Sequence record: LC727697.1
Source: Pseudomonas phage sp. 30-2
Strand: one strand, 5' to 3'
Length of the DNA stretch: 64,000 bases
Shown here piece by piece: positions 2,445-60,314 of this stretch. A model generated the notes under the pieces. That model was not told the origin of the DNA, made no database searches, and saw only the letters and a list, made by a program, of their open reading frames with translations. Both the position numbers and the translations under genes were made by a program. Positions within the stretch are counted from its first letter, which is position 1. Each line of letters opens with the position of its first letter.

Positions 2445-2672
2445 TTATTTAACTATTATCACTAATGCTATGAACACTATGCCCCATGCAATGTCTCCGT
2501 TAAATATAGCACCAATCCCGACAATGACCGAAAATACATCAATTAATGATCCTTTTCGTTCGGGCGACATAAATGCTGTGCATAGCAACAGTGCGATAAA
2601 ATACCAGATATTTCCAGTAACAATTGCAACAATAGAAGCTATGCATGCAACTATATTAGCAAGACCGCCCAT
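2445..2672 (-). CDS. small two-TM membrane protein (75 aa)
   Basis: Two hydrophobic helices. Stop abuts the hairpin. Confidence 0.5.
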   Translation of the reverse strand: MGGLANIVACIASIVAIVTGNIWYFIALLLCTAFMSPERKGSLIDVFSVIVGIGAIFNGDIAWGIVFIALVIIVK

Positions 2673-2673
2673 A

Positions 2674-3321
2674 TTATCCCCCTTGGGTCACGATGTATTC
2701 CCAATTAAGCCGGGTGACTCGACCGTCGACATTGCTGCGAATGCTCACTTGATCGTCGATTCCGCAGATGTTACCTTGTACATATTTCCATCGGGCAACA
2801 TCGTTGGGATACGAACGAAGGGGAACTACAGCCATAACTTCTTGCCCGAGATGATACCACCCGATGTCCAGATCGCTTTGCAAGCGGGCATATACGAGGC
2901 GAATCAATTCGGGACTAACAGACCATACCAAGTCTTTCTCTACATCCCACCACAAGACTGCCCCGCCGCGGATGGCCTTGCCGTCACTGAAGTAGTTACT
3001 GAATGAACAGAACTCGTCAGTAGTGTAGTCGAGGATCTCCCGACGATATTGTTCCCTGACCATCGAACCCGGTGCAAGGCACATACCATACACCGGAAAG
3101 TATCGGAAGAAGCAGCTCATGTTGCTTACTTGCAACGGCTGATCATCGTCATCGTAAACTTGAAACACCGTAGGGCTCGACTCGACTGAGCGGAAAGAAG
3201 AAACGAAGTTTTTAACACTCTCTTCGAATCCATCCAGCCGACCGGTGGTAGGACGCAACCATTTCAGCAGACCAGTGTTGTCCATGTCTACGTTTACGCT
3301 AAAAGAAAGATACTTAGACAT
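2674..3321 (-). CDS. hypothetical protein (about 215 aa, moderately GC-rich). Start chosen at MSKYLSFS.
   Basis: Long ORF at about 50% GC. AAGAG lies upstream of the internal ATG. The N-terminal 27 codons of the ORF-track call are doubtful. Confidence 0.5.
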   Translation of the reverse strand: MSKYLSFSVNVDMDNTGLLKWLRPTTGRLDGFEESVKNFVSSFRSVESSPTVFQVYDDDDQPLQVSNMSCFFRYFPVYGMCLAPGSMVREQYRREILDYTTDEFCSFSNYFSDGKAIRGGAVLWWDVEKDLVWSVSPELIRLVYARLQSDLDIGWYHLGQEVMAVVPLRSYPNDVARWKYVQGNICGIDDQVSIRSNVDGRVTRLNWEYIVTQGG

Positions 3322-4532: not shown

Positions 4533-4814
4533 TTGCTTTTCCTCGTAGATAAAAGAGTACTTCTTTTCTGTTCAATGCATGATAAATGCACTATTGATAT
4601 AATATCTAGCAGTTGAAGTTTCTTATCAAAATTCTCAGCAAACTTAATCTTTAGACAAAGAATGAACTTCATCTTTGTTCTTTTGGTGCTATATGCTTAC
4701 ATTTTTATTATAAACTATTATAGCATGATTGTATTTTATATAAACAGAAAGTTTGTAACAGGTTCTGCAAATTCTAATTATTTGCGATTGCATATATCAA
4801 AAAATATAGAACTA

Positions 4815-5569: not shown

Positions 5570-5776
5570 TTATTTGTATTGTTGAACAGAATAATCATGC
5601 CACATTTGATGTCCTCGAATCCATTCGTTACGTTCATACGGCTCATTTTTGGTATACGGGCAGTCTGTATATTTCTGCCCTAGTTTAGCTGCATGAACAC
5701 CTTCGCTAAACGGAGAAAAAGATGCACGCTCGCACAGAAATTCATCTACCAGCATGTCTGTTGTTTTGTTACTCAT
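5570..5776 (-). CDS. hypothetical protein (68 aa)
   Basis: ORF. Overlaps the next gene by 8 nt. Confidence 0.4.
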   Translation of the reverse strand: MSNKTTDMLVDEFLCERASFSPFSEGVHAAKLGQKYTDCPYTKNEPYERNEWIRGHQMWHDYSVQQYK

Positions 5777-6277: not shown

Positions 6278-6516
6278 AGAACTTCTCCTAGCTTACAGTC
6301 TACTGCCTCTTCAAATTCAGCATAAGACATTTGCTGGTTATCGAAATAAATAACGTCATGAACGGCATCATAAATGTAAGTATAAATGTTGCCGAAATAT
6401 TTAATCTGCACAGAATTTAAAAGTTTCTTTTTCAGCGACATAACTGCTACTCCTGCGGATTTATGAGTTAAATGTACTATGTTAACAAGCTACAGTCAAC
6501 TGGTATTTTTCTTAAA

Positions 6517-6538
6517 TTGCAAATAAGATTAATTCGCG
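6517..6538 (-). promoter_or_regulatory. palindromic motif copy (ttgcaaataagattaattcgcg)
   Basis: Matches consensus. Followed at 6555-6585 by an imperfect hairpin plus T-run. Confidence 0.5.
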
Positions 6539-6776
6539 TTTGCTAGTTAGCAGCCGCAAAAAAATCCCATCTAAGGGATCCTTTTGCCCAAAAACATTCG
6601 ATTCAGACATCTGTCTTTTAAACGAATCGAAGCGGTGTTTCGGCATTCATAATTATCATCATCATAATGTATATTTAATGCTGCGGCGGCATACTCTTCA
6701 CCTCCAGGAAGCATATAATAGTTTTAGGTTAATGATTCCTACTAGCACTAAGGCATATGCCAGTAGACCGTTTTAA

Positions 6777-7010
6777 GACCTGCTACAAAGCGGGGTAAAG
6801 CATAGATACATACAGTGTACCTTTGTAGCTGTCCCGCCTGTAGCAGCAAGGTCTAGCAGTGTCCAGGGGCAGGTACGTCATTGACCGATTTCCGATTTAA
6901 GGAAAGGTATGCTGCGCCTTCCACGTTACTAGACCTTGTACACCTGTTTGCCGCAGCCCGCGAACATCGCGGGCGGGCTGCTTGCGGGACGGTGTCTCCC
7001 GTTTAGTGTT
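6777..7010 (-). ncRNA. candidate structured non-coding RNA or leader (GC-rich, multiple nested stems, no ORF)
   Basis: About 58% GC island with no ORF. Complementary segments tgctacaaag/ctttgtagc, caaggtctag/ctagaccttg, cagcccgcg..cgcgggctg and cggga..tcccg. Orientation is uncertain. Confidence 0.35.
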
Positions 7011-7295
7011 GCTTACAATGCGTTATGCTGTATTGCTTTGTGTGTTTATAATACGTAAAACTATGCATGCTGTAAACTGAATTTTAAAACTTTTTGTGAT
7101 CTATTTTGTAACGCATGCAATGAAAATGAAGAATATTACATTGAAAAATATATAACTATTACAGACAAAATCTAATCTTTCCTTATAAAAAGTATAATCT
7201 TTATACAGTATCTGTTTATGCATTTTTATAGTTAATATATTAAAATATATCGATACTATTATAGATACAAATGCCTAAATACTTAAATAAAGCAT

Positions 7296-7484
7296 TCATT
7301 TCATCTCAACAAAGGCAAGTGCAAATATCATAAACGATATAACACATAGAATTACTCCGCCTATGCTGAAAATATAACTACCTACTAACCCTCCTAGCAT
7401 TAATCCTATTGTAGGATTATCTACCATAAATACGCCTAGTAACAGAACAATGATACCTATTACACTTGAAAGAGCTTTTTTCAT
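7296..7484 (-). CDS. small membrane protein (62 aa)
   Basis: Two hydrophobic helices. Confidence 0.45.
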   Translation of the reverse strand: MKKALSSVIGIIVLLLGVFMVDNPTIGLMLGGLVGSYIFSIGGVILCVISFMIFALAFVEMK

Positions 7485-7771
7485 AACCGAATTCCTTTAA
7501 TCGGGACAGATACTACTATGCATACACTGTCTTCTGCATTACATGCAAACATGTATTTCTTTTGTCCGTCATGCATTACACATTCGAACATTCCGTTAAC
7601 AGCATTATTGCAATTAACTTTCCCTGTTAATCCAAACTCTTCGTTTAGATATGTTTCTAGATCCTGTTCCATAATGAGGGTGCTCACATCTTTATTTGCA
7701 GAATCTGCTGCATAAGTATGAGCTATTACTGTGAGACCCAAAAATGCAACGAGACACAGTGTATTTTTCAT
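7481..7771 (-). CDS. secreted/periplasmic small protein (start at MKNTLCLVAFLGLTVIAHTYA, signal-peptide-like)
   Basis: Classic n-h-c signal peptide ending AHTYA-AD. Four Cys in the mature part. Confidence 0.5.
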   Translation of the reverse strand: MKNTLCLVAFLGLTVIAHTYAADSANKDVSTLIMEQDLETYLNEEFGLTGKVNCNNAVNGMFECVMHDGQKKYMFACNAEDSVCIVVSVPIKGIRL

Positions 7772-9316: not shown

Positions 9317-9718
9317 CTAATTAGCGTTCCAGCAAGTGTCAAACACAAGCAAATCTGTTAGTAGTTTCCACTCCGCTGCGGCAAGGTATGCCGAATGTTT
9401 TTCTACAAATTCGGGACTATGTAACGAAACTGACCAGCCGTTGCCGCGAATATACACCCGTTCTTTACTCCGGGCTACCTTGCCGTCTTTACGCATTGCA
9501 TCCTTGTGATGCGGATGCCCGGCAGTGCTAGACCACTGTACTGCCATTTGATGCAGTGCTACTTCGAAAAGTTCTGCATCTGACATGTTTATGTCCAGAT
9601 CCGGCACTTCAGCATCATATATGTTTGTCCCTACATAAAACTTTGCGTAACTTTTCATGACAGACAATCCTTTATGTTTTAGTTCTGTTATTAAACTTCT
9701 ATAAACACATAATAGCAA
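9317..9718 (-). CDS. hypothetical protein (133 aa)
   Basis: ORF with moderately raised GC. Confidence 0.45.
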   Translation of the reverse strand: MLLCVYRSLITELKHKGLSVMKSYAKFYVGTNIYDAEVPDLDINMSDAELFEVALHQMAVQWSSTAGHPHHKDAMRKDGKVARSKERVYIRGNGWSVSLHSPEFVEKHSAYLAAAEWKLLTDLLVFDTCWNAN

Positions 9719-10601: not shown

Positions 10602-10829
10602 TTATTGTTTCCCAGTCGGGTTGTTCGTAGATGTCATATGGGTGAGCTCCGATTCAACAGCCTGTAGTGCTGCTCGCATTCTGGCATTCTCTGCCTTTAG
10701 CTGTTCCAGCTCAGCTATAAGACTGAGAATTTCTTGTGGCTTTGCTGATGCTATTAACGCCACATAGCTATCAAATTTACAATCGAGAGCCTGTTCCGCT
10801 AGCTTCTTCATTTTGTTGATGTCAATCAT
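10602..10829 (-). CDS. Ea22/Ead-like N-terminal-type small protein (coiled coil)
   Basis: MKKLAEQAL start and an LEQLKAEN heptads region resemble the N-terminal part of lambdoid Ea22-like proteins. About 50% GC. Confidence 0.45.
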   Translation of the reverse strand: MIDINKMKKLAEQALDCKFDSYVALIASAKPQEILSLIAELEQLKAENARMRAALQAVESELTHMTSTNNPTGKQ

Positions 10830-10853
10830 TTGGTGGCTCCTTTGAGGATTTCG

Positions 10854-11168
10854 TTAAGATCGCAGCATCTCGGCGAGTTGATCGACAGTCTCTCGCAGCG
10901 CCTCGTTCTCCGCCTTGAGTTTGTCGATCTCGTCTAGCAAGTCGAGGACGGCTCGGGGGTTGGCGGCAGCACAGAAAGTGGCGTTAGCCTTGTCCTGCTC
11001 CAAATCGCTGTAAAAGCCTTCGTTACCGATCACGACTTCGCCATTGTCCGCTCGGATTACAGGAAACAGATTCGACCATGCAATGTCATCGCCTTCCTCC
11101 CAAGTTGCATACCACGGACCCGGCGTAGCCAGTTTTGCTAGCTTTTTTATTTTGTTGGTGTCGGTCAT
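10854..11168 (-). CDS. Ea22/Ead-like family protein
   Basis: KKLAKLATPGPW plus ...AAANPRAVLDLLDEIDKLKAENEALR, the characteristic PGPW signature. About 55% GC. Confidence 0.6.
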   Translation of the reverse strand: MTDTNKIKKLAKLATPGPWYATWEEGDDIAWSNLFPVIRADNGEVVIGNEGFYSDLEQDKANATFCAAANPRAVLDLLDEIDKLKAENEALRETVDQLAEMLRS

Positions 11169-11356
11169 GGAATCATCTCCGCCATTTCGGTAATAGCCTT
11201 TGCTAGGGCAAGGGCGTGTTCACAGTTACGGGCGCTTTTGCGAAGTGGAGTGCTGACGATGCGCATGTTAGTCACCCAAAATGTAAGCGATTAGGCAGGC
11301 GTAAATGGCCAGTCCAGGATGGCCAGAGAAGGCAAGGACTAGAGCGATTACCCAGA

Positions 11357-11623
11357 TCATGCGATCTCCTCCTTCGCCTGCAGTGTCATGTTGAGGTTAT
11401 ATTGCTTAGCGCAGGAGCAAAGGCGGCGAAGTTCATCGTTCTCGTCCGCCATGTGAAAAAATTCGATGTTGTAGTTGTTCAGCTTCAACTTACCGCTGCT
11501 GAATTTGGCAGATACGCGATGGCCTTGCGTGTGCAGGCTAAGGCCAAGATAGCGGAGTATCGACCTGTGGTCGGTTGGGATAGGTTCGTTCTTTGTGTTG
11601 ACGACAAACAAATTGATGGTCAT
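11357..11623 (-). CDS. hypothetical protein (88 aa)
   Basis: ORF fills the gap, ending 4 nt from the next gene. Confidence 0.4.
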   Translation of the reverse strand: MTINLFVVNTKNEPIPTDHRSILRYLGLSLHTQGHRVSAKFSSGKLKLNNYNIEFFHMADENDELRRLCSCAKQYNLNMTLQAKEEIA

Positions 11624-11626
11624 GCT

Positions 11627-12028
11627 TCACCCGAAGTCATACGCTTTCAGAACGCCATGTTTATCGTAGCCGACTTGACCACAATCTATGCTGCCTACCC
11701 AATCAGGAAAGTTTGCATGGGTGTTGTTCTTCCAATCCACTTCAACCAAACGCTCTTGCATGACGCAAATGAAGCCTCCGATTTCTAGCCAGCGTCCGCG
11801 CGCCAAGTAGCTGCCGGAACAGCTACCTTCCCAATCGTTGCACCGCTCACCCCTGTCATTAATCGGGAACTTCAGGACGTAATGCTTAGATAGAAAGCAT
11901 GCCCGTGTGATACCAATCTTCGGCTCACCGTACTTGGCAAACAACCGATTCAGTTGTTGCTGGGCAAGTTCATTGCGGTGCTGGGCGATGAAACCGCCAA
12001 ACAGCAATTTGTCCAACACAATGTTCAT
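11627..12028 (-). CDS. hypothetical protein (133 aa, GC-rich island)
   Basis: ORF at about 52% GC. Confidence 0.5.
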   Translation of the reverse strand: MNIVLDKLLFGGFIAQHRNELAQQQLNRLFAKYGEPKIGITRACFLSKHYVLKFPINDRGERCNDWEGSCSGSYLARGRWLEIGGFICVMQERLVEVDWKNNTHANFPDWVGSIDCGQVGYDKHGVLKAYDFG

Positions 12029-12052
12029 TCTGCGTGTCCTACGTGGAGACCA

Positions 12053-12487
12053 TTACAGATCCCGGATAGCTTCGGCGTTTTTTTCAAACCACTTGACTAG
12101 CTTTTGCATAGCTTCGGCTGGTGTCTTGCCCTTGATCTTGCGGAACTTGATCACTTCCGAACGATAGGGGATAGACCACGTTAGCAGCTCAATTTCGACC
12201 GGCGAACCTTCTGGCAATACATTCCCGCGATTGTCACACAAATTCATCATAAAGCGCATGTAACCGCTCGCATTCATCAGAATGCTGTTCGGGGCTTCGG
12301 AAGCGCAACCGACATTCGCAAACGAAATTGTCATCGACGGACCAAGGTTATCGGAAACCGACGCGGCGGCGATGTAATTCGGAAAAATCTTAGCCATGGA
12401 AGTTTTGAAGTCTTCGGCGGCTTGCTTGGTGTTTTCTACGATCATTTTTGAATCTCCGGGGCTGTTAGTCATGGCTTGTCTCCCCAT
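12053..12487 (-). CDS. hypothetical protein (up to 144 aa; start uncertain)
   Basis: ORF at about 50% GC. Confidence 0.45.
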   Translation of the reverse strand: MGRQAMTNSPGDSKMIVENTKQAAEDFKTSMAKIFPNYIAAASVSDNLGPSMTISFANVGCASEAPNSILMNASGYMRFMMNLCDNRGNVLPEGSPVEIELLTWSIPYRSEVIKFRKIKGKTPAEAMQKLVKWFEKNAEAIRDL

Positions 12488-12735
12488 TTCACTTCAAGCC
12501 ACAGGTCAACAGACTGGCGTCCTTCGGCATGCACCGCACAGTCGAAGCCGAGACTACGCAACACTTTGAGGATCGCTTCGCTGCGCCGCGAGGTGCCGAT
12601 GCCGAACCCATAGGCGCGGGTAGTGTACACGTACTTTCCTTCTGCGGCTGCTTTGGCGATGTCGTTGAGGATGGCATCGACATCGTCTTTCGCTCGCGCT
12701 ATGTCACGGGCTTGCTCAGCGGTCAGTCTGCTCAT
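12469..12735 (-). CDS. hypothetical protein (88 aa, start MSRLTAEQARDIARAK)
   Basis: ATGA overlap with the upstream gene. About 58% GC. Confidence 0.5.
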   Translation of the reverse strand: MSRLTAEQARDIARAKDDVDAILNDIAKAAAEGKYVYTTRAYGFGIGTSRRSEAILKVLRSLGFDCAVHAEGRQSVDLWLEVKWGDKP

Positions 12736-13055
12736 TTCACTGCCTCGATACCGGCTTCTTGGAGGGCTTCTTCCTGCGCCTTGAGCATTGCTTCGTAGGC
12801 TGGGAGGCATAGACCTCCTATGTAGTTTGTATCTGGGCAGACCACGGCGTCGTAGGTATCTTCCAACCAAGACGGGCACTGCCGCGGCATCGGGACGTAA
12901 TCCTTCATCAGTGCCACACGACTGGCTTTCCAGGCCTCGTAGCGTGCCTGAACATGCGGGTTGAGGTACAAGTCGTCGACTGCATTGTACGCAAGCGGTG
13001 CCGAAGAACGAGTCCGAACCCACGATTCAAATTCTTTTTTCATGTTAGGCTCCAT
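12732..13055 (-). CDS. hypothetical protein (107 aa)
   Basis: About 55% GC ORF. Translationally coupled to the downstream gene. Confidence 0.5.
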   Translation of the reverse strand: MEPNMKKEFESWVRTRSSAPLAYNAVDDLYLNPHVQARYEAWKASRVALMKDYVPMPRQCPSWLEDTYDAVVCPDTNYIGGLCLPAYEAMLKAQEEALQEAGIEAVK

Positions 13056-13083
13056 TAAATCAAAACGTTATGTGTTACTTCTA

Positions 13084-18523: not shown

Positions 18524-18748
18524 TCATTTCTTATTCCACGACATATCTCTAATATAGTGTTCATAACTTCCTACAGGTATTGTATTAGAAATAATTTTAG
18601 ATACAAGTATGTTATTATAAAATGGATAGGTTATAAAAATATCAGCGTCGCGTGTTATTATGTCTATGTAACAGCATTGTGTCGCTGGCATAGAATACCA
18701 AGTTATTGCATACAAACTAGCTGATATAGAAAATATAGTTAAAGACAC
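18524..18748 (-). CDS. hypothetical protein (74 aa)
   Basis: ORF. Confidence 0.35.
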   Translation of the reverse strand: MSLTIFSISASLYAITWYSMPATQCCYIDIITRDADIFITYPFYNNILVSKIISNTIPVGSYEHYIRDMSWNKK

Positions 18749-18780
18749 AGTAGTATAGTATATAGATTATATGGTCATGA

Positions 18781-18808
18781 AGAAAGGGGAGCAAATTGCT
18801 CCCCTTTC
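18781..18808 (-). terminator. GC-clamped hairpin aaaggggagc-aaat-tgctcccctttc
   Basis: Downstream of 18824-19528. Confidence 0.6.
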
Positions 18809-18823
18809 GGCGCAGTTGGGCAA

Positions 18824-19528
18824 TTACTTGCTTTCCTGCGCCGCCCCGGCGATCGCTGCGTTCTTTTCAGCGACCTTTTCGGCGCGCTCAGCTTCGCGCT
18901 TGGCCTTGCGTTCGTCAGCTTCGCGCTTGGCAGCCGCCGCTTTTTCTTCGCGTTCCTTCTTCTCGGCATCGCGCTTGGCCTTGCGTTCGGCAGCTTCTGC
19001 CTCGGCCTGCGCTTTGCGGTTGATCAGGAAGCCCTTGCCGCTGTTCGCCTTGCCGGCGCCGAGTTCAAAGACGAAGCCCAGGCGACGCAGCTTGTTGCCG
19101 ACGGAAGTGCTGTTCTGCTCGAAGTTGGCCTTGTCGACCCCGTCGAACACCAGGGTAGCTTCGTCGAAGCCGGTGTGGGTGATGGCCGCCTTGACGATCG
19201 CGATCGCGTTGCTGAGCCGGCTTTCGTCGGTGAGCGGTTTCGGACCCTTCTGCCCGGGAACTTTCGGTTCCGGGGTGTACTTGGCCGCCAGTTCCTTGCC
19301 GTCGAGCGCCTGCTCGATTTCGCGGGTGATGCGGATCGCGCTGAACACTTCCTTCTGCTCGAACTGTACGACGGTGCCATCTGCCAGTTCGACTTCGGCG
19401 GTCGCCGACCAGGTGCGCTTGCTCGGGGTGGTGTAAGTAGCCATGGTCTGGCCGATGACCACGCCGTTGATTGCCAGTGCCAGGACGTGCTGTTTGTCGG
19501 TACGTTGACGAGTGATATGTACGGACAT
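18824..19528 (-). CDS. GC-rich hypothetical protein with a long charged C-terminal helix (KAQAEAEAAERKAKRDAEKKEREEK...). Paralog of 659-1114.
   Basis: About 62% GC. Shared blocks with 659-1114. The overlapping antisense or out-of-frame ORFs are GC artefacts. Confidence 0.7.
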   Translation of the reverse strand: MSVHITRQRTDKQHVLALAINGVVIGQTMATYTTPSKRTWSATAEVELADGTVVQFEQKEVFSAIRITREIEQALDGKELAAKYTPEPKVPGQKGPKPLTDESRLSNAIAIVKAAITHTGFDEATLVFDGVDKANFEQNSTSVGNKLRRLGFVFELGAGKANSGKGFLINRKAQAEAEAAERKAKRDAEKKEREEKAAAAKREADERKAKREAERAEKVAEKNAAIAGAAQESK

Positions 19529-19900
19529 GTTGTATACCTCTGTAGCTGATGGAAGGATTATGTTGTTTACTTACTACACTTTCGGGGCACTTACCCCTTA
19601 AGCTTGTATACAGTGTAGAGCCTAGTTTGCATTGCGTCAAGCATTTTTTGTTTACTTTCTGCGTTGCTTACTATGTAGCGCTCTACACACTGCGTCTACA
19701 GTTCGCACTTTAAGGTCGTAGTAATGGAAAGTCAAGCATTTTTTAAAATATTTTTAAATTATTTTTTACCATCTTGTATACGCGCGCGAGCTATATATAG
19801 CAAGGTCAATCAGTATGGTGTAGAATTATAATTTATAAACAAATCAACTACTTATCTACTATCCATTTCCAAGTATGCTACCAATCCATATACTGGGCAG

Positions 19901-20135: not shown

Positions 20136-20164
20136 AAGAAAGGCAAACATAAGTCTGCCTTTCT
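20136..20164. terminator. hairpin agaaaggca-aacataagtc-tgcctttct
   Basis: Perfect 9-bp stem. Confidence 0.5.
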
Positions 20165-20686
20165 GATATAAATGCTCCTCAGAACAGTCACGTGCTCTGT
20201 ATCTGGGCAAATTATGCTCGTCAGCACAACGGAGCGGTATATCTTGCCTAAGGAATTGTTATTTGTATAAAGCCCCTTACTCTTTATACTCAGCTAGAAT
20301 ATACAATACTAAGGAATCACTAGCATCATCCTTAGGTCTATCTGGTTATACCAGAATCGACATATCTAAACAACATAGGAGGTATTTACGTATGCAACAG
20401 CGCATAACTTGTATATAGTATATGCATATGTGTATGTAATGTAAATGTTATTTTTATTAATTTACAGATAGTTTCTGTTCTTAATCTTTTCTAAACTATC
20501 AAAAATAAAAGATTAGCCAATGCATCGACAACATGCGCGATTGCATTTTGCATATACACTCAGAACACAAAATGTAAATGCAAAATGCAAATGCGGATCC
20601 GAGTTTGTGCCTAAAATTGAATTTGGAAACCGGAATTGCGATTTAGAATTCCAAAACCTAAATCGCAATTCCGAATGGCCGAATAC

Positions 20687-21094
20687 TTACTGATGAATGC
20701 CCATCTGGTGTTTCAGGTACTCGAGGGCGTTGTAGCTATTGCACTCGGCTTCGCTGCGAAGCTGACCTTCGCTTGCCGGGTAATATAGATCGCCTTTGCC
20801 TTGTGCTAGCAAGAAGCACATAGCACGAACGAGACCTTCAGACTGCACATGACTTACAGAAGACATCTGTGCATTGAGAAGTTCGGTGCCGTTAAACTCG
20901 ATGTAGTCGCCGCTTTCGAGACGACTCGCAGCATGTTCACGTCCGGTCTTGCGGTTGAAGTTATCCATTTCCGAACATGCTGCTACGGAAATACGGATCT
21001 TGTTGCCGGCGGTTTCCCAGGCAACAGTAGCGCCACGGCGGTTATCGATCTGTTGAGTTTCTTCGTTGTAGAAACGAATGTGAGTATGTTGCAT
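20687..21094 (-). CDS. GC-rich hypothetical protein (135 aa)
   Basis: About 50% GC ORF in an AT-rich context. Confidence 0.55.
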   Translation of the reverse strand: MQHTHIRFYNEETQQIDNRRGATVAWETAGNKIRISVAACSEMDNFNRKTGREHAASRLESGDYIEFNGTELLNAQMSSVSHVQSEGLVRAMCFLLAQGKGDLYYPASEGQLRSEAECNSYNALEYLKHQMGIHQ

Positions 21095-21887: not shown

Positions 21888-22072
21888 ATGGTTTGTGCAT
21901 ATCCTTTATACATATCCTCGTAAATTCTGATACTATTAGTACCTATTAATGAAAATATAGTTATTCTATCAGCATCTCGAAAATATGTAGGTTTTGAAAA
22001 TCTAAGAATGTCATAAAAATGACAATCTATAAAGTGACATCCTCTTTGCAATTTAAATATATTGAATTTCAT
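21884..22072 (-). CDS. paralog-array family member (short)
   Basis: ATGA coupling. FNIFKLQRG motif. Confidence 0.35.
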   Translation of the reverse strand: MKFNIFKLQRGCHFIDCHFYDILRFSKPTYFRDADRITIFSLIGTNSIRIYEDMYKGYAQTI

Positions 22073-22266
22073 ACTAGTATACCTGTATCTAAAAATCTAT
22101 ATATTGCAGCGTTTACATAGAATGTTTGATGTATATATTTTGTTATTGCAGGTAATACATATGTAGCGCCTACAGAATAATTATAATAGGTATCATTACT
22201 AATGTATATTCTATTCGATTTCATCAAAATAGATGAAGAATTATAAGACAGATCGAATATATTCAT
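22069..22266 (-). CDS. paralog-array family member (short)
   Basis: ATGA coupling. Confidence 0.35.
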   Translation of the reverse strand: MNIFDLSYNSSSILMKSNRIYISNDTYYNYSVGATYVLPAITKYIHQTFYVNAAIYRFLDTGILV

Positions 22267-25161
22267 CTACTGTAAAACTCGGATGTATTACAATTCTGCT
22301 ATTCGTTTTATATAATACACAAATTGAATCATAATTTACATCTTTAATGAAATATGTATGATAAAAAAGTCTGATAGTCATGCAATTTTGTGATATTACA
22401 AATATACGCATATCATTTAAGTATTTTTATATCTCGGGAATACCTACCGCTGTCGTTACGTTCAATTAGAATGTAATACACATTGCCTGACTTAAAACGA
22501 GCTTTCTGCAAAGATATGGAACATAATGTGAGTTGATATTGTAATAGATCATTCATATAGTATGCCTATTTAAAAGAATTCTTCTTACACTATTAAAATT
22601 TATATAAATTTATTTTCAACTGAGCACAATAATATTGTATAGTTCCTAAAAGACAATATGAATTATATATTTCTATTGAATCACTATGTTGTCTGTCTAT
22701 TTTGTAGCAACTAGCAGACAATTTAAATACCCAATCGATCATTTTAGTTTTAGATTCTAAAAGTATTTTATTTTACTTACAATCTTAATATAAAATATAA
22801 TTCTTTAATAATAGGTGATTCTTTGTTTGTATCTTTATTCATAAATTTTTATGCCGAAAAATACAACTTGTTTTTGTTAATTAATACTTCGGTGATCGGG
22901 CGGCAGAAATATAGCATGAAATAACTCAATTTCCTCGCCGGCTTTTTCATAAAAATGCAAGTGACGCCACATTAACTCCATCTTAATTGTATCCACCCTG
23001 CGTTGGAACTGTAGCAATATATCTAACATATATGTAGTCCTGTACAATAAATTACCACTAACATTTTTCCATAAATATAAACTTCAAATGTTTTATTAAA
23101 AATAGAAAAACTAATTAAAGAAACATTAAAAGAAATAAAAATAAGATTATACACCATACAGTATAGTTCGTGTAGTTTGACACGGAAAGATAGTAATATT
23201 ATTATATATTATGGAAACTGATATTACTGATCTAGTAAATGATTCAAATGATATAGACTCTACACCGCTGCATACAGTTAAAATGTAATTATATTTGAGA
23301 GTATCTATATATTCTAACATTTTAAGAATTGTTTATTAATATATAACATACCTGACTTAATATATACAATAAGACAGGAAGGCTGTCGAAAAATCTTTAT
23401 TTTATCTGCACGATTAGACATATACAACAGTGTAGTGAAATGATGATCTTGCATTATAGTTTCCCACACGTTGTATAATAATGGTAGTAGTATTTTCCGA
23501 TTGATTTAAATATAGAAACACGTAATACTTTGCTTGTTCTTCTTTCTAATATTATTTTTGACGTGTTATGTGATATTAGAACTATATTTTTACGAATCAT
23601 ACAATACTATAAAGTAATTCAATACATGTCGTATAGTTAATAAGCATATATTATATGAAAGATAATCCTATACATGCAAATGTAACCTACATTATACAGA
23701 TATAGTTCTTAAGATGCAACGCAATTATGTACAAGTGAGAGATATATTGAAATTCTTGCAGAATCATATCGCACAACATGAACTCTAAAAGTATGATTCT
23801 GAATAACAAATATAGAAACATTTTTCTTTGCTGCTCTATTCATTTATTACTCTCATGTATTAGTAATTAACGATATGTTTATTTGTATCTAATTATTACA
23901 ATGAAATGTATGTCATCATTTTTGTTTAGAAAGTTCACAACTAAAATATCACTGTTTTTACAAAAACGAAACATAATATTAGAAGTATTGTAAGAACATT
24001 CAAGGATACTGGTCATGTTATATATGCAAACGAGTCTACCATATAAAATGCAAGACCGTCTTTTGCCTTTATGAGTATCGAGTAGTATACTATATCTCTA
24101 AGTCTTGCTGTATTTGCACATATTTCGTATGCATGCGATGAAAATTCTATTATATCTTTTATACCATTCATCTTAGATATGCAACACTAATTATAATAAT
24201 TTTTTCATTACTATTATAAATGCATGCTAATAGATACGTGCTACATAGCGATGAATCTATTGTATGTGCGCATGAAGATACCTGCAACATATCATAATGT
24301 ATATCGTGATTTATAATATTTTTATTTATGAACATTTATTCTAATTCTAACATATGAATCTGAATACACATTAATACCTGTTGGGGATATTCTAGTATAC
24401 CATCTATTAAGATAGTGTTGAATACAAACTATATTATGAATTGATACCGGCGACATAAGTGTTAACGCTTGTTTGTGTGTAAACGAACATAATGTATAGG
24501 ATATGACGACGCATTATAAAATACTAAACAATGAGCACTAGTTATATAATTAGTATTAAACCGGTGCGTATTAAGCGATAATTCAACTATATTACTTATT
24601 GGTTTTTTCATTTAATTTATATGTTAGAGTAAGAAAATTATTGCATTCTACTTGTAATATATTACATTCACATGCATCAAAATAATATATGCTGATATGA
24701 CGTACATTATACTGTATGTAGAATACGTTCTTATATAAGCCCGGGGGTATCATCATATAAAATCAATCTACCGTACTCATAATATATAATAACACTAAAA
24801 CGATTAACTGATATATAGCATGAGTTAAATGAAATGTATGTTATTTTATCAATATCTGTTGCCATTATTAAACTGTATTACATACAACCAGATTCTATAT
24901 AATTTAATATGTTCTTAGATAACATTAATTGTAAACACATAATTGCCATGTCTGTCATACATTTTAATCTTGTATACAATGCGTCTGACATGTATAACAC
25001 AAATATAGCAAGTATTGCGTGATAAGAGAAATATTCCCATTTGTTTTAATACACAACAAAGATAATTTTATTATTTTTATTTAAGAAGAAAATGTTATAG
25101 TAGCTGTCAGTTGTTATATTATATGTATGGTGACATACATACATTAATTCTAATATATTTG
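22267..25161 (-). pseudogene. 2.9-kb ORF-free AT-rich stretch inside the array, probably decayed paralog copies
   Basis: No ORF of 60 aa or more on either strand. Flanked on both sides by family members. Confidence 0.35.
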
Positions 25162-43799: not shown

Positions 43800-43889
43800 T
43801 GGCAGATACTGTAGGATTCGAACCTACGGAGCTTTTTCAAACTCACTTCCTTAGCAGGGAAGCACCTTAAGCCACTCGGTCAAGTATCT
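43800..43889 (-). tRNA. tRNA-Ser (anticodon GCU), long variable arm, CCA encoded
   Basis: Hand-folded. Acceptor agatact/agtatct, anticodon loop cuGCUaa, T-loop ttcgaat. Confidence 0.7.
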
Positions 43890-43894
43890 ATATT

Positions 43895-43984
43895 TGGCGG
43901 AGAGGGTGGGATTCGAACCCACGGGACCTTTCGATCCGCTAGTTTTCAAGACTAGTATAATAAACCAGACTCTATCACCTCTCC
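43895..43984 (-). tRNA. tRNA-Ser (anticodon UGA), long variable arm, CCA encoded
   Basis: Acceptor ggagagg/cctctcc, anticodon loop cuUGAaa. Confidence 0.7.
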
Positions 43985-43998
43985 AAAACTAGTTAATT

Positions 43999-44358
43999 CT
44001 ATTCGTAAATTATTCTACAATGTTGTTTTCCTGCAACTCTATCTAAATAACCAAGTCTAGCTAAAATAGCTGGAGCTACATTATTATATTCATCTATAAA
44101 AGATTTAGGAACATTATATAAGTATGCACTTTGGTCATTATCGAATTCTTTACAAAAGATACCATAAAAGTGCGGAACATAGGGATTATCTTCGAATTCC
44201 TTATTTTCTAAAATCTTATCTTCTAAATACGCATCATTTGCAAATAATCTAATATTTTTATTTATTTTATTAGATTCGTATTCCGAGTCTTCGTATATAA
44301 TTTTTGCATCGGCAGTAGGAAGATATATTCCGTATACAATTTGAATTTTGGAAATCAT
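43999..44358 (-). CDS. hypothetical protein with a GIY...IIYE motif (possible degenerate GIY-YIG homing-endonuclease remnant)
   Basis: IVYGIYLPTADAKIIYEDSEY spacing resembles GIY-x9-YIG. Lies between tRNA genes. Too short for a full enzyme. Confidence 0.3.
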   Translation of the reverse strand: MISKIQIVYGIYLPTADAKIIYEDSEYESNKINKNIRLFANDAYLEDKILENKEFEDNPYVPHFYGIFCKEFDNDQSAYLYNVPKSFIDEYNNVAPAILARLGYLDRVAGKQHCRIIYE

Positions 44359-45170
44359 TTAAAATTCTCTTTTGTTATTTTATGCACTTATTATACGAAA
44401 TAATTATACTTTTGTCAAATGTTATTTTGTATATTTAAAAGAAATCATCATAAGAATGTACTACAAGTATATATTTTTCTTATTAAATATCCGTCGGGAT
44501 CTATTATAAAAATATTCAAATGCTTTGAATAAAAAACACCATTAAAAAAGTAAGTAGGGGATATTCGTATAATACCTTCGTTAGCATTAATAGATATCCT
44601 AAATATGTTTTCCATAAATCCACACCGTTATTATGTGTATTTATGGTTTTATTTCTATTTAGAATAGTTATTATAATAGATATATAATGGTTATTTAAAG
44701 GTAAGTCAATTTATAAAATAATAGATAAGCTAAAAATATTTGCATGCAATTAAAAAATCAGTTGTTTTATCTACAACATATATTTCTAATTGTTTTCTAT
44801 TGCTTGTCGGTTTAGTTTTTATCGAAACACATATAGATTTTGTATAAGACAACCTAGAAATGCTATATACATTTTCACGAAAAATAGACAAATCGAGTCT
44901 AAATATGCAACCTGCCATTTAATGTTGGTTCCTTAAACAGAACAATATCAATTTATATTTTTATTCTATCTGTCTAAAAACCATAAAGCATAATTTCCTA
45001 TATTAGGAAGGTATAAACATAAACAATGAGATTTTCTTACATACAATAACTCTGTTGTGTATGCCTGTATTTCCAGCACCGTTATATTAGATGGTATAAC
45101 TAATACTTCCATATTTATCCACTACACGAATCATCGAATAGATATACCAATCAATTATATTAGAATATTG

Positions 45171-45243
45171 AGCAGCCCACGGGACTCGAACCCGTAACAT
45201 CTGACTTGGAAGGACAGTGCTCTACCAATTGAGCTAGGACTGC
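45171..45243 (-). tRNA. tRNA-Gly (anticodon UCC), probable
   Basis: Cloverleaf with acceptor gcagtcc/gggctgc (one G-U) and loop cuUCCaa. One U-U mismatch in the anticodon stem. Confidence 0.55.
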
Positions 45244-45252
45244 ATAGTAAAT

Positions 45253-45329
45253 TGGTCTAGGCAGGAGACCTCGAATCCCCAACCTCTTGCTCCCAAAGCA
45301 AGTGCTCTACCTACTTGAGCTATGCCTAG
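45253..45329 (-). tRNA. tRNA-Pro (anticodon UGG), CCA encoded
   Basis: Acceptor ctaggca/tgcctag, anticodon stem cttgc/gcaag, loop uuUGGga. Confidence 0.7.
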
Positions 45330-45338
45330 ATATAAAAC

Positions 45339-45415
45339 TGGTTGCAGGGGTGGGATTCGAACCCACGATAAAAAGGTTATGAGCCTTTCTGCTTAGACCT
45401 CTTGCATACCCTGCG
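45339..45415 (-). tRNA. tRNA-Met-like (anticodon CAU) with a 1-72 C-A mismatch (initiator-like feature)
   Basis: Loop cuCAUaa. T-arm gtggg-ttcgaat-cccac. Acceptor cgcaggg/ccctgca has a C1-A72 mismatch. Confidence 0.6.
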
Positions 45416-45438
45416 ATAAAACTATATTGTTATATTAT

Positions 45439-45771
45439 TTACCATTTTAAATTTTTAATCTGAGAAAAATCAAATTCCGGAAGTATGCATTTATCGTCTA
45501 GATAATCTTGCATAATCTTTACATCATCAGGCGAACACGAACCTGTACTAGATTGCCACAGGCTCATTATATCTTTCGAATACATAGATCCACGACTATG
45601 TATTCCGTATCTACAGTGCATATTGTCTTTTACTATGCCAACTCTTGCTTTTCCGGCATCGAAATAAACAATATTATATATTCCGTCTATATATGAAATT
45701 AGACGTGCATTTTTTCTATTGTTACGCTTTATCCATTTTAGAACATCTGTATCATTAGAATAATTATTCAT
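45439..45771 (-). CDS. hypothetical protein (110 aa), possible mobile-endonuclease remnant
   Basis: DGIYNIVYFDAGKARVGIV is GIY-YIG-like. Intercalated between tRNA genes. Confidence 0.3.
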   Translation of the reverse strand: MNNYSNDTDVLKWIKRNNRKNARLISYIDGIYNIVYFDAGKARVGIVKDNMHCRYGIHSRGSMYSKDIMSLWQSSTGSCSPDDVKIMQDYLDDKCILPEFDFSQIKNLKW

Positions 45772-45799
45772 TATTTGAGGTACTCTTATATATACATGT

Positions 45800-46042
45800 T
45801 TATTCTAAAATTATTTTCCCTTTACCGTATAATTCTGTATTATACCAAGCTACAGAGTATAAGTAAATAGAATTATATTTAATATCGAATATGTATATTC
45901 CGCTAGTATCAGTTCTAATACTGAATGCTTGTTGTTGAAGCCAAAATAATTTTATTTGTAACGATAACTCTTTGCATTTCCTACAAGTCGATGTATGCTT
46001 TTTGATTGTTCTGTATTGTAGATGTTCTTTGCATCTATTCAT
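45800..46042 (-). CDS. small Cys-containing protein (80 aa)
   Basis: CKEH...CRKCK motif. Confidence 0.35.
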   Translation of the reverse strand: MNRCKEHLQYRTIKKHTSTCRKCKELSLQIKLFWLQQQAFSIRTDTSGIYIFDIKYNSIYLYSVAWYNTELYGKGKIILE

Positions 46043-46310
46043 ATTATTAATATAAATTTTTATACTATAATATTTTTATAGCGAGTCCAGCCTACTAAAC
46101 AGGTATTGTGCAGATTGTAGTTCGAATCAATTCCGATTAATACTCGTCCTATATAATTTTTTCGTAAGTTTAGCTGACCTGGACTGATCCGAGTTTTTCT
46201 GCACACTTCAAATATATCTTTACCTATACAACAGAAACCTTGTTTCATACTATAACGAAGAAGTCTTATGTCAAATCTTATTGTTTGCATAACACAACAC
46301 TCTTTAAAAT

Positions 46311-46387
46311 TGGCGCGCCCGGAGGGATTCGAACCCCCGACCATCCGCTTAGAAGGCGGATGCTCTATCCAGCTGAGCTACGAGCGC
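46311..46387 (-). tRNA. tRNA-Arg (anticodon UCU), CCA encoded
   Basis: Acceptor gcgctcg/cgggcgc (one G-U). D-arm tagctcagctggatagagca. Loop cuUCUaa. Confidence 0.75.
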
Positions 46388-47299
46388 ATATCTTGTGCAA
46401 CTAATGATAGCTTTGTAATAATGCTTTGTATGCGTAACATTATATACTGTTTTGTTTGTTCGGTCAACTATTTTTATTAAAATATATATCTATACAATTA
46501 AGTAATGATCGACGTAACATTTATGAAAATAACTACCACTATTTATTAAGTATAAAGCTATTACGGATTTCTCACAAAAAGTATTTTTACTGACTACAAA
46601 CCCTTTGTAGATTTTTGCATGACATACGATGCGTTCTAAATAGTACGAATAGGAAAAAATACAGTTCATTATCATCATCTTAGCCGTACAATATAACAAT
46701 TCTTATCTAGCCGAACATACCATACTATTTCGCCAGAATAAACACAAACTATGGATTCCGACCATTTTAATAACGACAATTTACATATCAATGTTTTATG
46801 CGAAATAGTTAAAATTTTTTCCATTCTTTATTCTATGTAATAAAGTTAATAAGAAATACTAAGTATACCGCAATATCGATAATAAACAGAATTGCTATAT
46901 ATTATCTAAGCACTTCCGGTATTTGTTACAATAAAAATATTATGTATTATAGAATATAACGGAACATCGGATGCAAATAGTATCTTATCTTAAATATCAT
47001 AGTAATAGAAAGGATAGTAACAGATCTATTATCGCATAACGATATTATGTTGAAACAAGGCATGTATATTACTTCTGTTGAGTATTGTAAATTAATAATG
47101 TATTTCATTTTTTAATTCTATATTGCATTGTATTTCCATGCCATAGAAAATGTACCGATATCAAAATGTACCCATAATGTAAAAGATCTATTATTTTTTA
47201 TAGTGACTACTAACTTGTTTAATACGCGATATTCTATTACGTATGTGTTGGCAGATATATGCATTATTTCATTCATAATAAAAATATCATAATAAAAAA

Positions 47300-47326
47300 G
47301 GAACATACCATAATATGTTCCTTTTG
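47300..47326 (-). terminator. hairpin ggaacatacc-ataa-tatgttcc within the tRNA cluster (processing or terminator element)
   Basis: 8-bp stem, one GU-type mismatch. Confidence 0.4.
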
Positions 47327-47334
47327 TAGGAGTT

Positions 47335-47419
47335 TGGTGCCCGGTGCCAGACTCGAACTGGCACGACTTTCGTCGGGAGATTTTAAGTCTCCTGTGTCTA
47401 CCGATTTCACCAACCGGGC
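47335..47419 (-). tRNA. tRNA-Leu (anticodon UAA), long variable arm, CCA encoded
   Basis: Acceptor gcccggt/accgggc. Loop cuUAAaa. Confidence 0.7.
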
Positions 47420-47468
47420 ATATTCATTCATTATATAGTTTAAGTATAGTTTGATTTGTATATAAAAA

Positions 47469-47545
47469 TTGGTGGGACTTACTGGATTCGAACCAGTGAC
47501 CTAGCGATTATGAGTCGCGCGCTCTAACCAACTGAGCTAAAGTCC
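47469..47545 (-). tRNA. CAU-anticodon tRNA, copy a, whose body resembles tRNA-Ile2 (lysidine tRNA)
   Basis: Anticodon arm gcgactcataatcgct and D-arm tagctcagttggttagagc match the E. coli ileX sequence as recalled. Acceptor gggactt/aagtccc. Confidence 0.65.
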
Positions 47546-47615
47546 CGTTTGAAACATTATATGAATATTTTATTTAGACTATTGTATCTCTTTAGATACA
47601 AATGTTATTTAAAAT

Positions 47616-47691
<76 letters not shown>

Positions 47692-47717
47692 ATATTGAAT
47701 ATACAACAAAGTGTAAT

Positions 47718-47793
47718 TGGCTGGCTAGGTAGGACTCGAACCTACGACCCAATGATTAACAGTCATTTGCTCTACCGACTGAGCTACTAGCCA
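47718..47793 (-). tRNA. tRNA-Asn (anticodon GUU)
   Basis: Acceptor tggctag/ctagcca. Loop cuGUUaa. Confidence 0.7.
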
Positions 47794-47843
47794 TTTAATT
47801 TTAGAATAGTTTCCTATCTTGTTAAGTATTTATATCTTTTGTT

Positions 47844-47928
47844 TGGTACCCGAGACCGGACTCGAACCGGTACGCTGCGAAGCGGGAGATTTTAAGTCTC
47901 CTGTGTCTACCAATTTCACCACTCGGGC
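47844..47928 (-). tRNA. tRNA-Leu (anticodon UAA), second copy with a different variable arm and acceptor
   Basis: Acceptor gcccgag/ctcgggt. Same D and anticodon arms as 47335-47419. Confidence 0.65.
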
Positions 47929-47950
47929 TAAAAGCACAACATCTTAAAAT

Positions 47951-48027
47951 TGGTCCCTCGAACTGGATTCGAACCAGTGACCTAGCGATTATGAGTCGCG
48001 CGCTCTAACCAACTGAGCTACCGAGGG
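47951..48027 (-). tRNA. CAU-anticodon tRNA, copy b, identical to 47469-47545 except for the acceptor stem (ccctcgg/tcgaggg)
   Basis: D-arm, anticodon arm, variable loop and T-arm are base-for-base identical to copy a. Confidence 0.65.
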
Positions 48028-59694: not shown

Positions 59695-59824
59695 ACTATA
59701 TATCCTATTATGAAAATATAATTACAGAAACGACTAATATTTTACATTAATTATTATATTCAAAAATACATGATTGCAGGCAACATTCAACTAAAAATGT
59801 CATTTATTGTTTATTTCTTATATA

Positions 59825-59853
59825 AAATAAGGGACATAAAGTCCCTTATTTTA
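59825..59853 (-). terminator. hairpin aaaataaggga-cataaa-gtcccttatttt
   Basis: Perfect stem. Downstream of 59881-60240. Confidence 0.6.
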
Positions 59854-59880
59854 TATAAACCGAGCGCACTCGCCGCCGGT

Positions 59881-60240
59881 TTAGTCGTCAGTGTCGAACT
59901 CGAACTGATCGTCGCCGTGTTGAAGCTTGAGCATCATAATGTGCTCTTTCGGCACCCGGTCGCCGACGGCTTTTTCGTATTCATCCCAGGTGCGGATGAT
60001 GTCACCGTCCACTGCCCATGCGTTTTTCTTTTTCCCGTTGATGTGGGTGGCCGGACCGAGCAAGCGGTGCATGTTGCCCTGAATGTTCAGCCACACCTTG
60101 TTGCCGTCCTTGTCAACGATGCAGTAGGAGTCGATTTCCTGGAGAACGTATTCGGTTACGCCGCCGACTTGACCATCGACGACCTTCGAGTGCTCGGGAA
60201 ATTCTGCCAGTGCCCATGCTTCTTCGTAGCTTTTTGCCAT
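59881..60240 (-). CDS. GC-rich hypothetical acidic protein (119 aa)
   Basis: About 55% GC island. The plus-strand ORF 59770-60279 is its antisense artefact. Confidence 0.6.
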   Translation of the reverse strand: MAKSYEEAWALAEFPEHSKVVDGQVGGVTEYVLQEIDSYCIVDKDGNKVWLNIQGNMHRLLGPATHINGKKKNAWAVDGDIIRTWDEYEKAVGDRVPKEHIMMLKLQHGDDQFEFDTDD

Positions 60241-60314
60241 TGCAAATTACCTCTCGGTTGTATTAATGTTGTTTGTTAAGCTTCTTAGCTTGATATACAG
60301 TATAGCGCAAAATA

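Follow-up and report, generated by a model that had tools for sequence, protein, structure and literature searches.

The GC-rich region at 6777-7010 of Pseudomonas phage sp. 30-2 and its correspondence to ncRNA002 of jumbo phage PA5oct

The closest described counterpart of the element considered here is a noncoding RNA (ncRNA) of the Pseudomonas jumbo phage PA5oct. Stranded RNA-seq of PA5oct identified four actively transcribed regions without plausible open reading frames (ORFs), of which ncRNA002 accounted for 4.65, 5.04, and 1.23% of the phage reads at 5, 15, and 25 min (early, middle, and late infection, respectively) and was similar to nothing in GenBank except for the sister isolate MIJ3 (Lood et al., 2020; PMC7318152). 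A share of about 5% of the phage reads places it with the most abundant transcripts of this model jumbo phage. The PA5oct genome record (MK797984) annotates it at 21951..22401 (EST35_0068) as "ncRNA002, putative lncRNA" on the basis of RNA-Seq, and the published record consists of coordinates and read shares only, with no promoter, terminator, domains, or micro-ORF. In this study, a stretch of 64,000 nucleotides (nt) from Pseudomonas phage sp. 30-2 (LC727697.1; hereafter the window) was analyzed, in which a GC-rich, self-complementary region at positions 6777-7010 had been proposed from the letters alone to specify a structured ncRNA on the minus strand (the original prediction). Judged by its sequence and context, this region is the folded 5' half of the ncRNA002 orthologue. 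Since the RNA is already catalogued, in the literature (2020) and in GenBank as PA5oct ncRNA002, it is not new as a discovery; what is added here is its promoter, terminator, domain map, micro-ORF, and pattern of variation, together with the exclusion of riboswitch, intron, and coding readings.

The PA5oct ncRNA002 aligned to approximately 7029-6575 of the window on the minus strand. It shares the locus, flanking genes, strand, promoter, Shine-Dalgarno (SD) sequence with micro-ORF, and terminator, and was considered an orthologue. The 1.1 kb around 6777-7010 matched ten Pseudomonas jumbo phage genomes with 93.9-98.8% identity and the same flanking genes, all of them members of Wroclawvirus, the single genus of the family Arenbergviridae. 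The named phages among these included PA5oct, MIJ3, Paride, Cassandra, Deifobo, Ettore, Callisto, PAC2, and phi30-3. Identity to PA5oct was 93.9% over 1,101 nt, and across the 261 nt around the GC-rich core it ranged from 94.3% (PA5oct) up to 100%, with 98.5-100% for eight other Wroclawvirus genomes. The RNA locus is flanked by orthologues of EST35_0067 (62 amino acids, aa) and EST35_0069 (55 aa) and shares their strand, and the gene at 7296-7484, which had been noted at about 300 nt, lies 286 nt upstream on the minus strand. Additionally, a cluster of 12 tRNA genes was found 37 kb away from the RNA locus, and its anticodon set is identical to that reported for PA5oct (Lood et al., 2020; PMC7318152). 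On these sequence comparisons, the window is from a PA5oct-like jumbo Pseudomonas phage (Wroclawvirus). The proposal of a structured minus-strand ncRNA was borne out, as the 94%-identical PA5oct locus is annotated as ncRNA002 from RNA-Seq, and the published reads show an abundant transcript from the corresponding strand (PMC7318152).

A sigma70-like sequence, TTTACA-17-TATTAT, scored highest among the promoter-like sites of 6300-7600 (10 of 12 matches), and it resembles the published PA5oct motif TTGAC / TATAATA. The site lies 19 nt upstream of the mapped PA5oct RNA-seq 5' end (~7029) and has a predicted start at ~7041-7040. The promoter scan as a whole was not above chance (7 sites versus 5.6 +/- 2.3 expected), and hence it is the position of this site that counts. 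Both hexamers were invariant in all variants, with three states at the first base of the spacer. It was previously stated that the PA5oct ncRNA regions lack known promoters and that PA5oct transcription relies on the host polymerase (Lood et al., 2020; PMC7318152); the promoter search of that study covered only the 100 nt upstream of coding sequences (CDSs). At the other end, the PA5oct RNA-seq 3' end (22401) maps inside the hairpin of an intrinsic terminator (Table 1). The consensus terminator scanner did not list this hairpin at 6558-6585, probably because an upstream A-run pairs with the U-run. Promoter and terminator were retained in all of the approximately 15 variants, and those of the window are identical or nearly so to the PA5oct ones. 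From these signals, we place the transcript at ~7040 to ~6558 of the minus strand, with a length of ~483 nt. The feature first delimited at 6777-7010 is real, and as a unit it covers only the 5' half of this transcript.

The promoter and terminator at the RNA-seq ends, together with a separate promoter-like site (TTGACT-17-TACATT) between the terminator and the downstream 55-aa gene (6441-6274), argue for a stand-alone unit. With moderate confidence, we favor a stand-alone RNA whose compact GC-rich fold serves stability and provides a binding surface, and which acts in trans during early and middle infection, with the SD and micro-ORF as the likeliest interface with translation. Under this model, the host sigma70 RNA polymerase would transcribe the RNA from 7076-7048 and terminate at 6585-6558, and the product would code for no protein longer than five residues. 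The compact fold probably confers a long life, which may partly account for the share of ~5% of phage reads, and a second probable role of the fold is that of a scaffold for a factor from the host or the phage. The RNA would not act on the genes behind it, and its open SD and micro-ORF segment may be the most likely contact with the host translation machinery.

Alternatively, the locus could be a terminated leader or attenuator of the operon that starts with the 55-aa gene, the 480-nt RNA being a terminated by-product. Read-through of the terminator would then be conditional on a ribosome on the Pro-Pro micro-ORF, an antiterminator protein, or a polymerase-modifying RNA fold. Consistent with such a role, the RNA is oriented like the downstream gene array, from which ~115 nt separate it, the micro-ORF behind the SD contains two Pro codons and is found 90 nt before the terminator at the end of the RNA, a possible long-range helix could mask the micro-ORF start, and an alternative fold of the 5' domain exists. 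Prematurely terminated RNAs from 5' untranslated regions (5'UTRs) are also known from other Pseudomonas phages, where 29 of them were found by ONT-cappable-seq (PMC10914365). Among the elements of an expression platform, a terminator, an SD, and a possible helix over the micro-ORF start are present. However, no antiterminator pairing that competes with the terminator stem was found, the next gene is preceded by its own promoter-like site, the alternative fold is essentially unpopulated (see below), no riboswitch, T-box, or leader family matched, and 300 nt is a considerable length for a structured leader in simple attenuation. Taken together, we regard the leader role as rather unlikely.

The folding of the RNA was compared with 200 dinucleotide shuffles per stretch. 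The 261-nt stretch reached -98.9 kcal/mol on the minus strand (z-score, z, of -4.0) and -100.2 kcal/mol on the plus strand (z -3.5), with 0 of 200 shuffles as good in either case. The first ~300 nt of the RNA make up four domains, GC-rich and compact, namely the three-way junction, P2, P3, and P4; every one of these beat its shuffles, and the 3' third is open (Table 1). The four complementarities named in the original prediction are all present in the sequence, and three of them belong to the predicted fold: caaggtctag/ctagaccttg forms the base of hairpin P2, cagcccgcg...cgcgggctg is hairpin H2, and cggga...tcccg is hairpin H1. The fourth, tgctacaaag/ctttgtagc, is a genuine complementarity of 9 bp, but it forms only in an alternative fold that lies 6.9 kcal/mol above the minimum free energy (MFE) and has a probability of ~1e-5, since its 3' strand finds a better partner in CUGCUACAGGCGGG. 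The pairing competes with the outer helix of P3, the hairpin (CUGCUACAGGCGGG / CCCGC-U-UUGUAGCAG) that contains the alternative 9-bp pairing, and the fold also joins the 3' strand of H1 to the 5' strand of P3. Given this energy difference and probability, a two-state switch of the 5' domain is possible in the folding model and is not indicated, and riboswitch-like bistability was rejected.

Table 1. Positions and properties of the RNA elements and other features in the window; energies are in kcal/mol.
Feature	Position	Strand	Properties
Sigma70-like promoter	7048..7076	(-)	-35 TTTACA (7076-7071), 17-nt spacer, -10 TATTAT (7053-7048)
5' leader, A/C-rich	7010..7040	(-)	Weak helices only predicted
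Three-way junction domain	6940..7009	(-)	-30.6, z -2.4
Helix P1, closes junction	7009-7005 with 6945-6940	(-)	P 0.81
Hairpin H1	7001-6985	(-)	P 0.71
Hairpin H2	6981-6953	(-)	Two alleles, each a hairpin
P2, 92-nt irregular hairpin	6847..6938	(-)	-34.6, z -3.75, 0/200 shuffles; 12-bp base CAAGGUCUAGUA / UGCUAGACCUUG (base probability 0.99), internal loops, tip UUUCC-UUAAAUC-GGAAA
P3, 67-nt hairpin, inner stem-loop	6780..6846	(-)	-29.2, z -4.65, 0/200 shuffles
P4, 10-bp hairpin	6738..6769	(-)	CUACUGGCAU...GUGCUAGUAG, variable loop; -14.2, z -3.1
Open segment	6711-6643	(-)	No more structured than shuffles, z +0.37
Extended SD, GGAGGUGA	6696..6711, core 6705-6698	(-)	CUUCC in front; perfect 8-nt anti-SD match
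Micro-ORF (MPPQH)	6675..6692	(-)	AUG CCG CCG CAG CAU UAA; 8-nt spacing from SD to AUG
P5, AU-rich hairpin	6643..6681	(-)	Closing stem GCAUU/AAUGC; stem conserved, top hypervariable
P6 hairpin	6597..6631	(-)	UCGAUUC...GAAUCGA with inner AGAC/GUCU; -9.6, z -2.0
Intrinsic terminator	6558..6585	(-)	GGAUCCC-UUAGAU-GGGAU, then U7; -11.4, z -2.2
Promoter-like site of downstream gene array	6471..6499	(-)	TTGACT-17-TACATT; not part of the RNA
ORF, 47 aa		sense	Shortened to 31 aa (PA5oct) or 15 aa (variant L018)
ORF, 44 aa		sense	No SD, crosses terminator, frameshifted in variant L018; only amino-acid-changing differences from PA5oct
ORF, 41 aa		antisense to transcript	Open in all variants, TTG start, only non-synonymous differences
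Other GC-rich islands	568-1144, 2657-3287, 9363-9621, 10780-13069, 18737-19598, 20630-21093, 59821-60267		50-75% GC
tRNA cluster, 12 genes	43800-48027	(-)	Ser x2, Gly, Pro, Met x3, Arg, Leu x2, Thr, Asn

Known RNA families were searched with Rfam 15, using the gathering score for the whole window and a threshold of E <= 10 for 6450-7300, and ARAGORN was also run. At the gathering score, no riboswitch, intron, or other family matched the RNA locus. Under the relaxed threshold, the sole cis-regulatory match was a partial fluoride match of 11.8 bits, located on the wrong strand and outside the fold, and no intron model was found. Neither ARAGORN nor Rfam detected a tRNA or tmRNA at the locus, and all 12 tRNAs were located at 43.8-48.0 kb. 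Neither a split ORF nor one of intron type was present in 6450-7300. On both sides the locus is bordered by complete small genes, and it interrupts no gene. The riboswitch-like leader and the intron remnant that had been suggested for the region, as well as a tRNA-like reading, are therefore unsupported, and the locus is a unit with its own promoter and terminator. For lack of a match in the same searches, tmRNA, 6S, RNase P, Y RNA, GOLLD/ROOL, and the known Pseudomonas small RNAs were likewise rejected.

The variation of the RNA was examined across 20 loci taken from phage records at NCBI, a single ENA assembly, and Logan contigs, which included 13 distinct full-length versions and 10 distinct 5' domains. 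Overall, the variation was concentrated at the tips of hairpins. Outside H2, nine variable sites were observed, six of which are unpaired, being located in the tip loop, a bulge, an internal loop, a linker, the P4 loop, and the 5' leader. The remaining three are paired, and each change there preserves the pair: a G.U pair became A-U in P3 in four of the 10 distinct sequences, a single C-to-U change turned G-C into G.U in P2 in one sequence, and a G-C to G.U change occurred in a weak 5' helix. The other variable sites of P2 fall in its tip loop, bulge, and internal loop. On the plus strand, the changes in P2 and P3 would each produce a C-A mismatch, and they therefore mildly favor the minus strand, in agreement with the RNA-seq. 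The H2 hairpin has two alleles that differ by five substitutions and two indels in 30 nt, both of which fold as hairpins. Similarly, P5 has three alleles with a constant closing stem, and four versions of the P4 loop, among them one with a CGC insertion, were found on an invariant stem. In P6, a C-to-U change of PA5oct turns G-C into G.U, and the other PA5oct change is in the loop. The window carries the commoner allele A of both H2 and P5, while PA5oct carries a rewritten version of both. Clustered changes in such quasi-palindromes could also come from template switching.

These changes also bear on a DNA-level role. In that case, the function of the inverted repeats might be, for example, that of a replication origin, a recombination site, or a protein-binding site, with transcription either incidental or a means of opening the DNA. 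The nearly equal folding of both strands would be expected of such an element, and the corresponding PA5oct region falls within the long terminal repeat of that phage. The helices, however, are irregular, with bulges and wobble pairs instead of clean palindromes, the one-sided changes preserve pairs in the minus-strand RNA only, and the RNA has discrete ends at its promoter and terminator. No iteron-type repeats were noticed when the region was read and folded, although no dedicated repeat search was made. A DNA-level role thus appears extremely unlikely.

Several observations weigh against a functional stand-alone RNA. The check for covariation across homologous phages gave no support: of 93 pairs predicted by RNAalifold, none had a double-sided compensatory change, and the covariation term was -0.02, in a test with almost no power at 98% mean column identity. 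Because the RNA is confined to one genus and all copies are at least 94% identical, double-sided covariation cannot be shown. Compared with PA5oct, the core (6700-6899) has ~3 differences per 100 nt and the neighboring genes 2-3%, while two hot spots have 11 and 16 differences per 100 nt, the latter being P5, and resemble other mosaic patches of the genome. As the core diverges like its neighbors and the hot spots like such patches, conservation neither supports nor contradicts a function. In addition, the transcription was measured in the relative PA5oct and not in phage 30-2, and the fold energy gives the minus strand no edge. No functional study of ncRNA002 was found in the later literature, nor was a target, partner, or phenotype. 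The downstream promoter-like site has only nine of 12 consensus matches, which leaves some probability to the leader role, and the conserved strong SD with its micro-ORF suggests translation, so that the RNA is perhaps not strictly noncoding.

A core that is not more conserved than its surroundings, the lack of covariation, and the lack of a homologue beyond one genus would also be expected of a functionless remnant, that is, an acquired GC-rich fragment that lost its frame, is transcribed from a fortuitous promoter, and persists through nuclease-resistant hairpins. The GC content is 54.7% for 6777-7010, 58.7% in the peak 150-nt window, and 32.3% for the entire 64 kb; the contrast of 58% against about 30% drawn originally is right at the peak and slightly high for the whole span. 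Seven other GC-rich islands were found (Table 1), with a peak of 75% at 568-1144. All seven coincide with long ORFs, most of which are on the minus strand, and at 59821-60267 the longest is on the plus strand. Most of the island ORFs had no Pfam match; the one at 10857-11168 encodes an Ead/Ea22-like protein. These islands look like genes acquired from GC-richer sources, and 6737-7074 is the sole GC-rich island of the window without a long ORF. A remnant, however, would not be expected to fold better than dinucleotide-matched shuffles in every core domain, to keep a well-placed promoter and terminator in all variants, or to supply ~5% of the reads of a phage under selection for economy. Moreover, the substitutions avoid or preserve pairs, and no similarity to protein families or to bacterial or plasmid DNA was found. 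We therefore consider a remnant quite unlikely.

The absence of a plausible ORF, as originally noted, was upheld. The longest ORFs over the region have 41 aa (antisense, with a TTG start) and 32-33 aa, and none of the small ORFs on either strand matched Pfam or PHROG. Nor did the relatives provide a protein-coding counterpart that would refute the proposal: their versions of the longer ORFs carry truncations or frameshifts, or differ by non-synonymous changes alone. Automatic annotations nevertheless place three to four "hypothetical protein" CDSs (32-44 aa, both strands) over the equivalent of 6512-7080 in the newer genomes of Cassandra, PAC2, Ettore, Deifobo, and Paride. These CDSs are probably spurious because they break, drift, or run antisense to the measured transcript. 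A real product of the 41-aa antisense frame or of the 44-aa or 47-aa sense frame could be argued from these annotated features and from the antisense frame being open in all variants. In contrast, the RNA-seq-curated PA5oct annotation has no CDS here, and the lesions and substitution patterns of the three frames (Table 1), like the absence of family matches, are at odds with a protein-coding gene, to which we give almost no credence.

The micro-ORF MPPQH lies nearer to the folded region than the ~120 nt given at first, at 72-85 nt from 6777 (SD 6705-6698, ATG 6692). All the components of a minigene were found, namely an SD, an AUG, two to eight sense codons, a stop, and a well-expressed RNA, the abundance being taken from PA5oct RNA-seq. 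An alternative is that the RNA is the carrier of this minigene and delivers a very efficiently initiated fMet-Pro-Pro-Gln-His ORF, in analogy to toxic minigenes such as lambda bar. Translation of this ORF would either keep ribosomes or tRNA occupied, by way of slow Pro-Pro bond formation and the drop-off of peptidyl-tRNA, or yield a pentapeptide that acts on the ribosome. The perfect SD lies 8 nt from the AUG in a segment predicted to be open, and the phage has its own tRNA-Pro(UGG). Minigenes of 3-8 codons were shown to inhibit translation by tRNA sequestration, the more strongly the shorter they are (PMC2490762). The motif GGAGGTGA occurs in a single copy in the 64-kb window, but this is within chance (0.41 expected; at least one copy in 33 of 100 shuffles). 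Similarly, the ORF is intact in 13 of the 13 distinct versions, and its stop is kept as UGA in place of UAA in the PA5oct and L018 alleles, beside a hypervariable stretch; an intact ORF is of little weight because the whole RNA is 98-100% conserved. The codon CCG makes up 23-29% of the Pro codons of the phage itself, and sequestering its tRNA would therefore not spare the phage; a host-specific tRNA sequestration was rejected on this ground. Furthermore, the SD-minigene module did not occur elsewhere in IMG/VR or GTDB genomes, the 300 nt of elaborate structure would be unexplained, and the same bases can form a long-range helix. A mere carrier of a minigene is thus improbable.

The long-range helix would pair the micro-ORF start with the segment just 3' of H2 (~6957-6940) and is present in the MFE folds of both full-length alleles. 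When all 18-nt windows of the 5' domain were compared in the sequences of the window, PA5oct, and L018, this segment gave the best pairing with AGAGUAUGCCGCCGCAGCAUU in each. The duplex reached -20.3 kcal/mol in the window (reached by 10% of the shuffles) and -25.9 kcal/mol in allele B (0.7%). In this folding model the helix is a lead and not evidence, because one strand alone differs between the alleles and the test was chosen after seeing the data. A more elaborate possibility, which we regard as very improbable, is a new class of riboregulator, in which a nuclease-resistant multi-domain scaffold would offer a perfect-SD Pro-Pro minigene to host ribosomes and thereby trap or reprogram translation early in infection. 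The long-range helix would be its gate, with the 5' strand in the fast-evolving H2 region, and its targets would be 30S subunits, tRNA-Pro, and the dependence on EF-P.

Approximately 0.9 kb downstream of the RNA, a 68-aa protein (5573-5776, minus strand) matched the Pfam family RMF (ribosome modulation factor) with an E-value of 2.5e-5. The match of 24.7 bits is just below the cut-off of 27.9 bits, and the same weak match is precomputed for its orthologues. The proximity of a protein resembling a ribosome hibernation factor to an RNA with a perfect SD is perhaps noteworthy, as the relative Paride replicates in dormant cells. If the riboregulator possibility were true, the RNA might cooperate with this protein and might bear on replication of the Paride type in dormant cells.

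Searches beyond the close relatives suggested that the RNA is, as far as its sequence can be traced, an orphan of one genus. No paralogue was found within the window by blastn-short and nhmmer, and the potential antisense targets within the window were limited to 11-nt matches at chance level. An exact core 24-mer was absent from IMG/VR, a core 21-mer from JGI metagenomes, and the core pattern from GTDB genomes. A search of IMG/VR with the two flanking proteins returned nothing related, and among 5.8 billion proteins, the flanking protein fell in a single 90% cluster with nothing beyond it. In distant mode, plasmids gave only chance 30-nt matches (E >= 0.3), with no bacterial or plasmid similarity beyond chance. 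Contigs with the flanking protein contributed five new versions of the RNA, all nearly identical.

Other parts of the window were also found to be of interest. An orthologue of ncRNA001, the other abundant RNA-seq-defined RNA of PA5oct (2.4-5.1% of the phage reads), was located at ~20155-20390 on the minus strand with 99.6% identity and 39% GC. It has a promoter-like site of its own, TTTACA-17-TATACT, and ends at a hairpin directly before an "extensin-like" CDS. Its sequence is unrelated to ncRNA002, and it was rejected as a paralogue. The 265-nt spacer upstream of the RNA promoter (7030-7295) is very AT-rich (20-27% GC) and is a divergence hot spot with 15 differences per 100 nt from PA5oct. 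It contains a small ORF of 40 aa, which is annotated with 65 aa in Paride and is broken by an 11-nt deletion in PA5oct and L018. This spacer could be a small gene in decay or a region resembling an UP element. Across the 6 kb that were compared, local divergence from PA5oct peaked at 4600-4699, with 84 differing columns including an indel of ~77 nt, a pattern that indicates mosaic exchange among Wroclawviruses.

The map presented here, composed of a promoter, four folded domains, an SD and minigene segment, a terminator, and two hypervariable tips, gives experimenters defined targets for mutation in a group of phages of which close relatives such as Paride are studied for killing dormant, antibiotic-tolerant Pseudomonas aeruginosa. 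Among the phage-encoded, highly structured noncoding RNAs that are abundant or conserved are GOLLD, ROOL, species 1 and 2 of T4, and the pRNA of phi29. The RNA described here is smaller than GOLLD or ROOL, matches no Rfam 15 model, is distant from the tRNA cluster, and is confined to a single genus. The lambda bar minigene has two sense codons, whereas the ORF here has five. In lambda bar, the large structured domain has no counterpart. The two are alike in being phage-borne ORFs of only a few codons, with strong initiation and a well-transcribed RNA as carrier (Hernandez-Sanchez et al., 1998, cited in PMC2490762), and such ORFs can sequester tRNA as peptidyl-tRNA (PMC2490762). The 5'UTR ncRNAs of Pseudomonas phages such as phiKZ, PAK_P3, YuA, and LUZ19 are likewise abundant, promoter-proximal, and short, end at a terminator before genes of the same orientation, and are conserved within a genus only (Putzeys et al., 2024; PMC10914365). 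Those RNAs are 89-210 nt where a length is given and lie directly in the 5'UTR of a gene (PMC10914365), whereas the RNA of phage 30-2 would span ~483 nt, with a 300-nt GC-rich multi-domain fold and a promoter-like site before the next gene.

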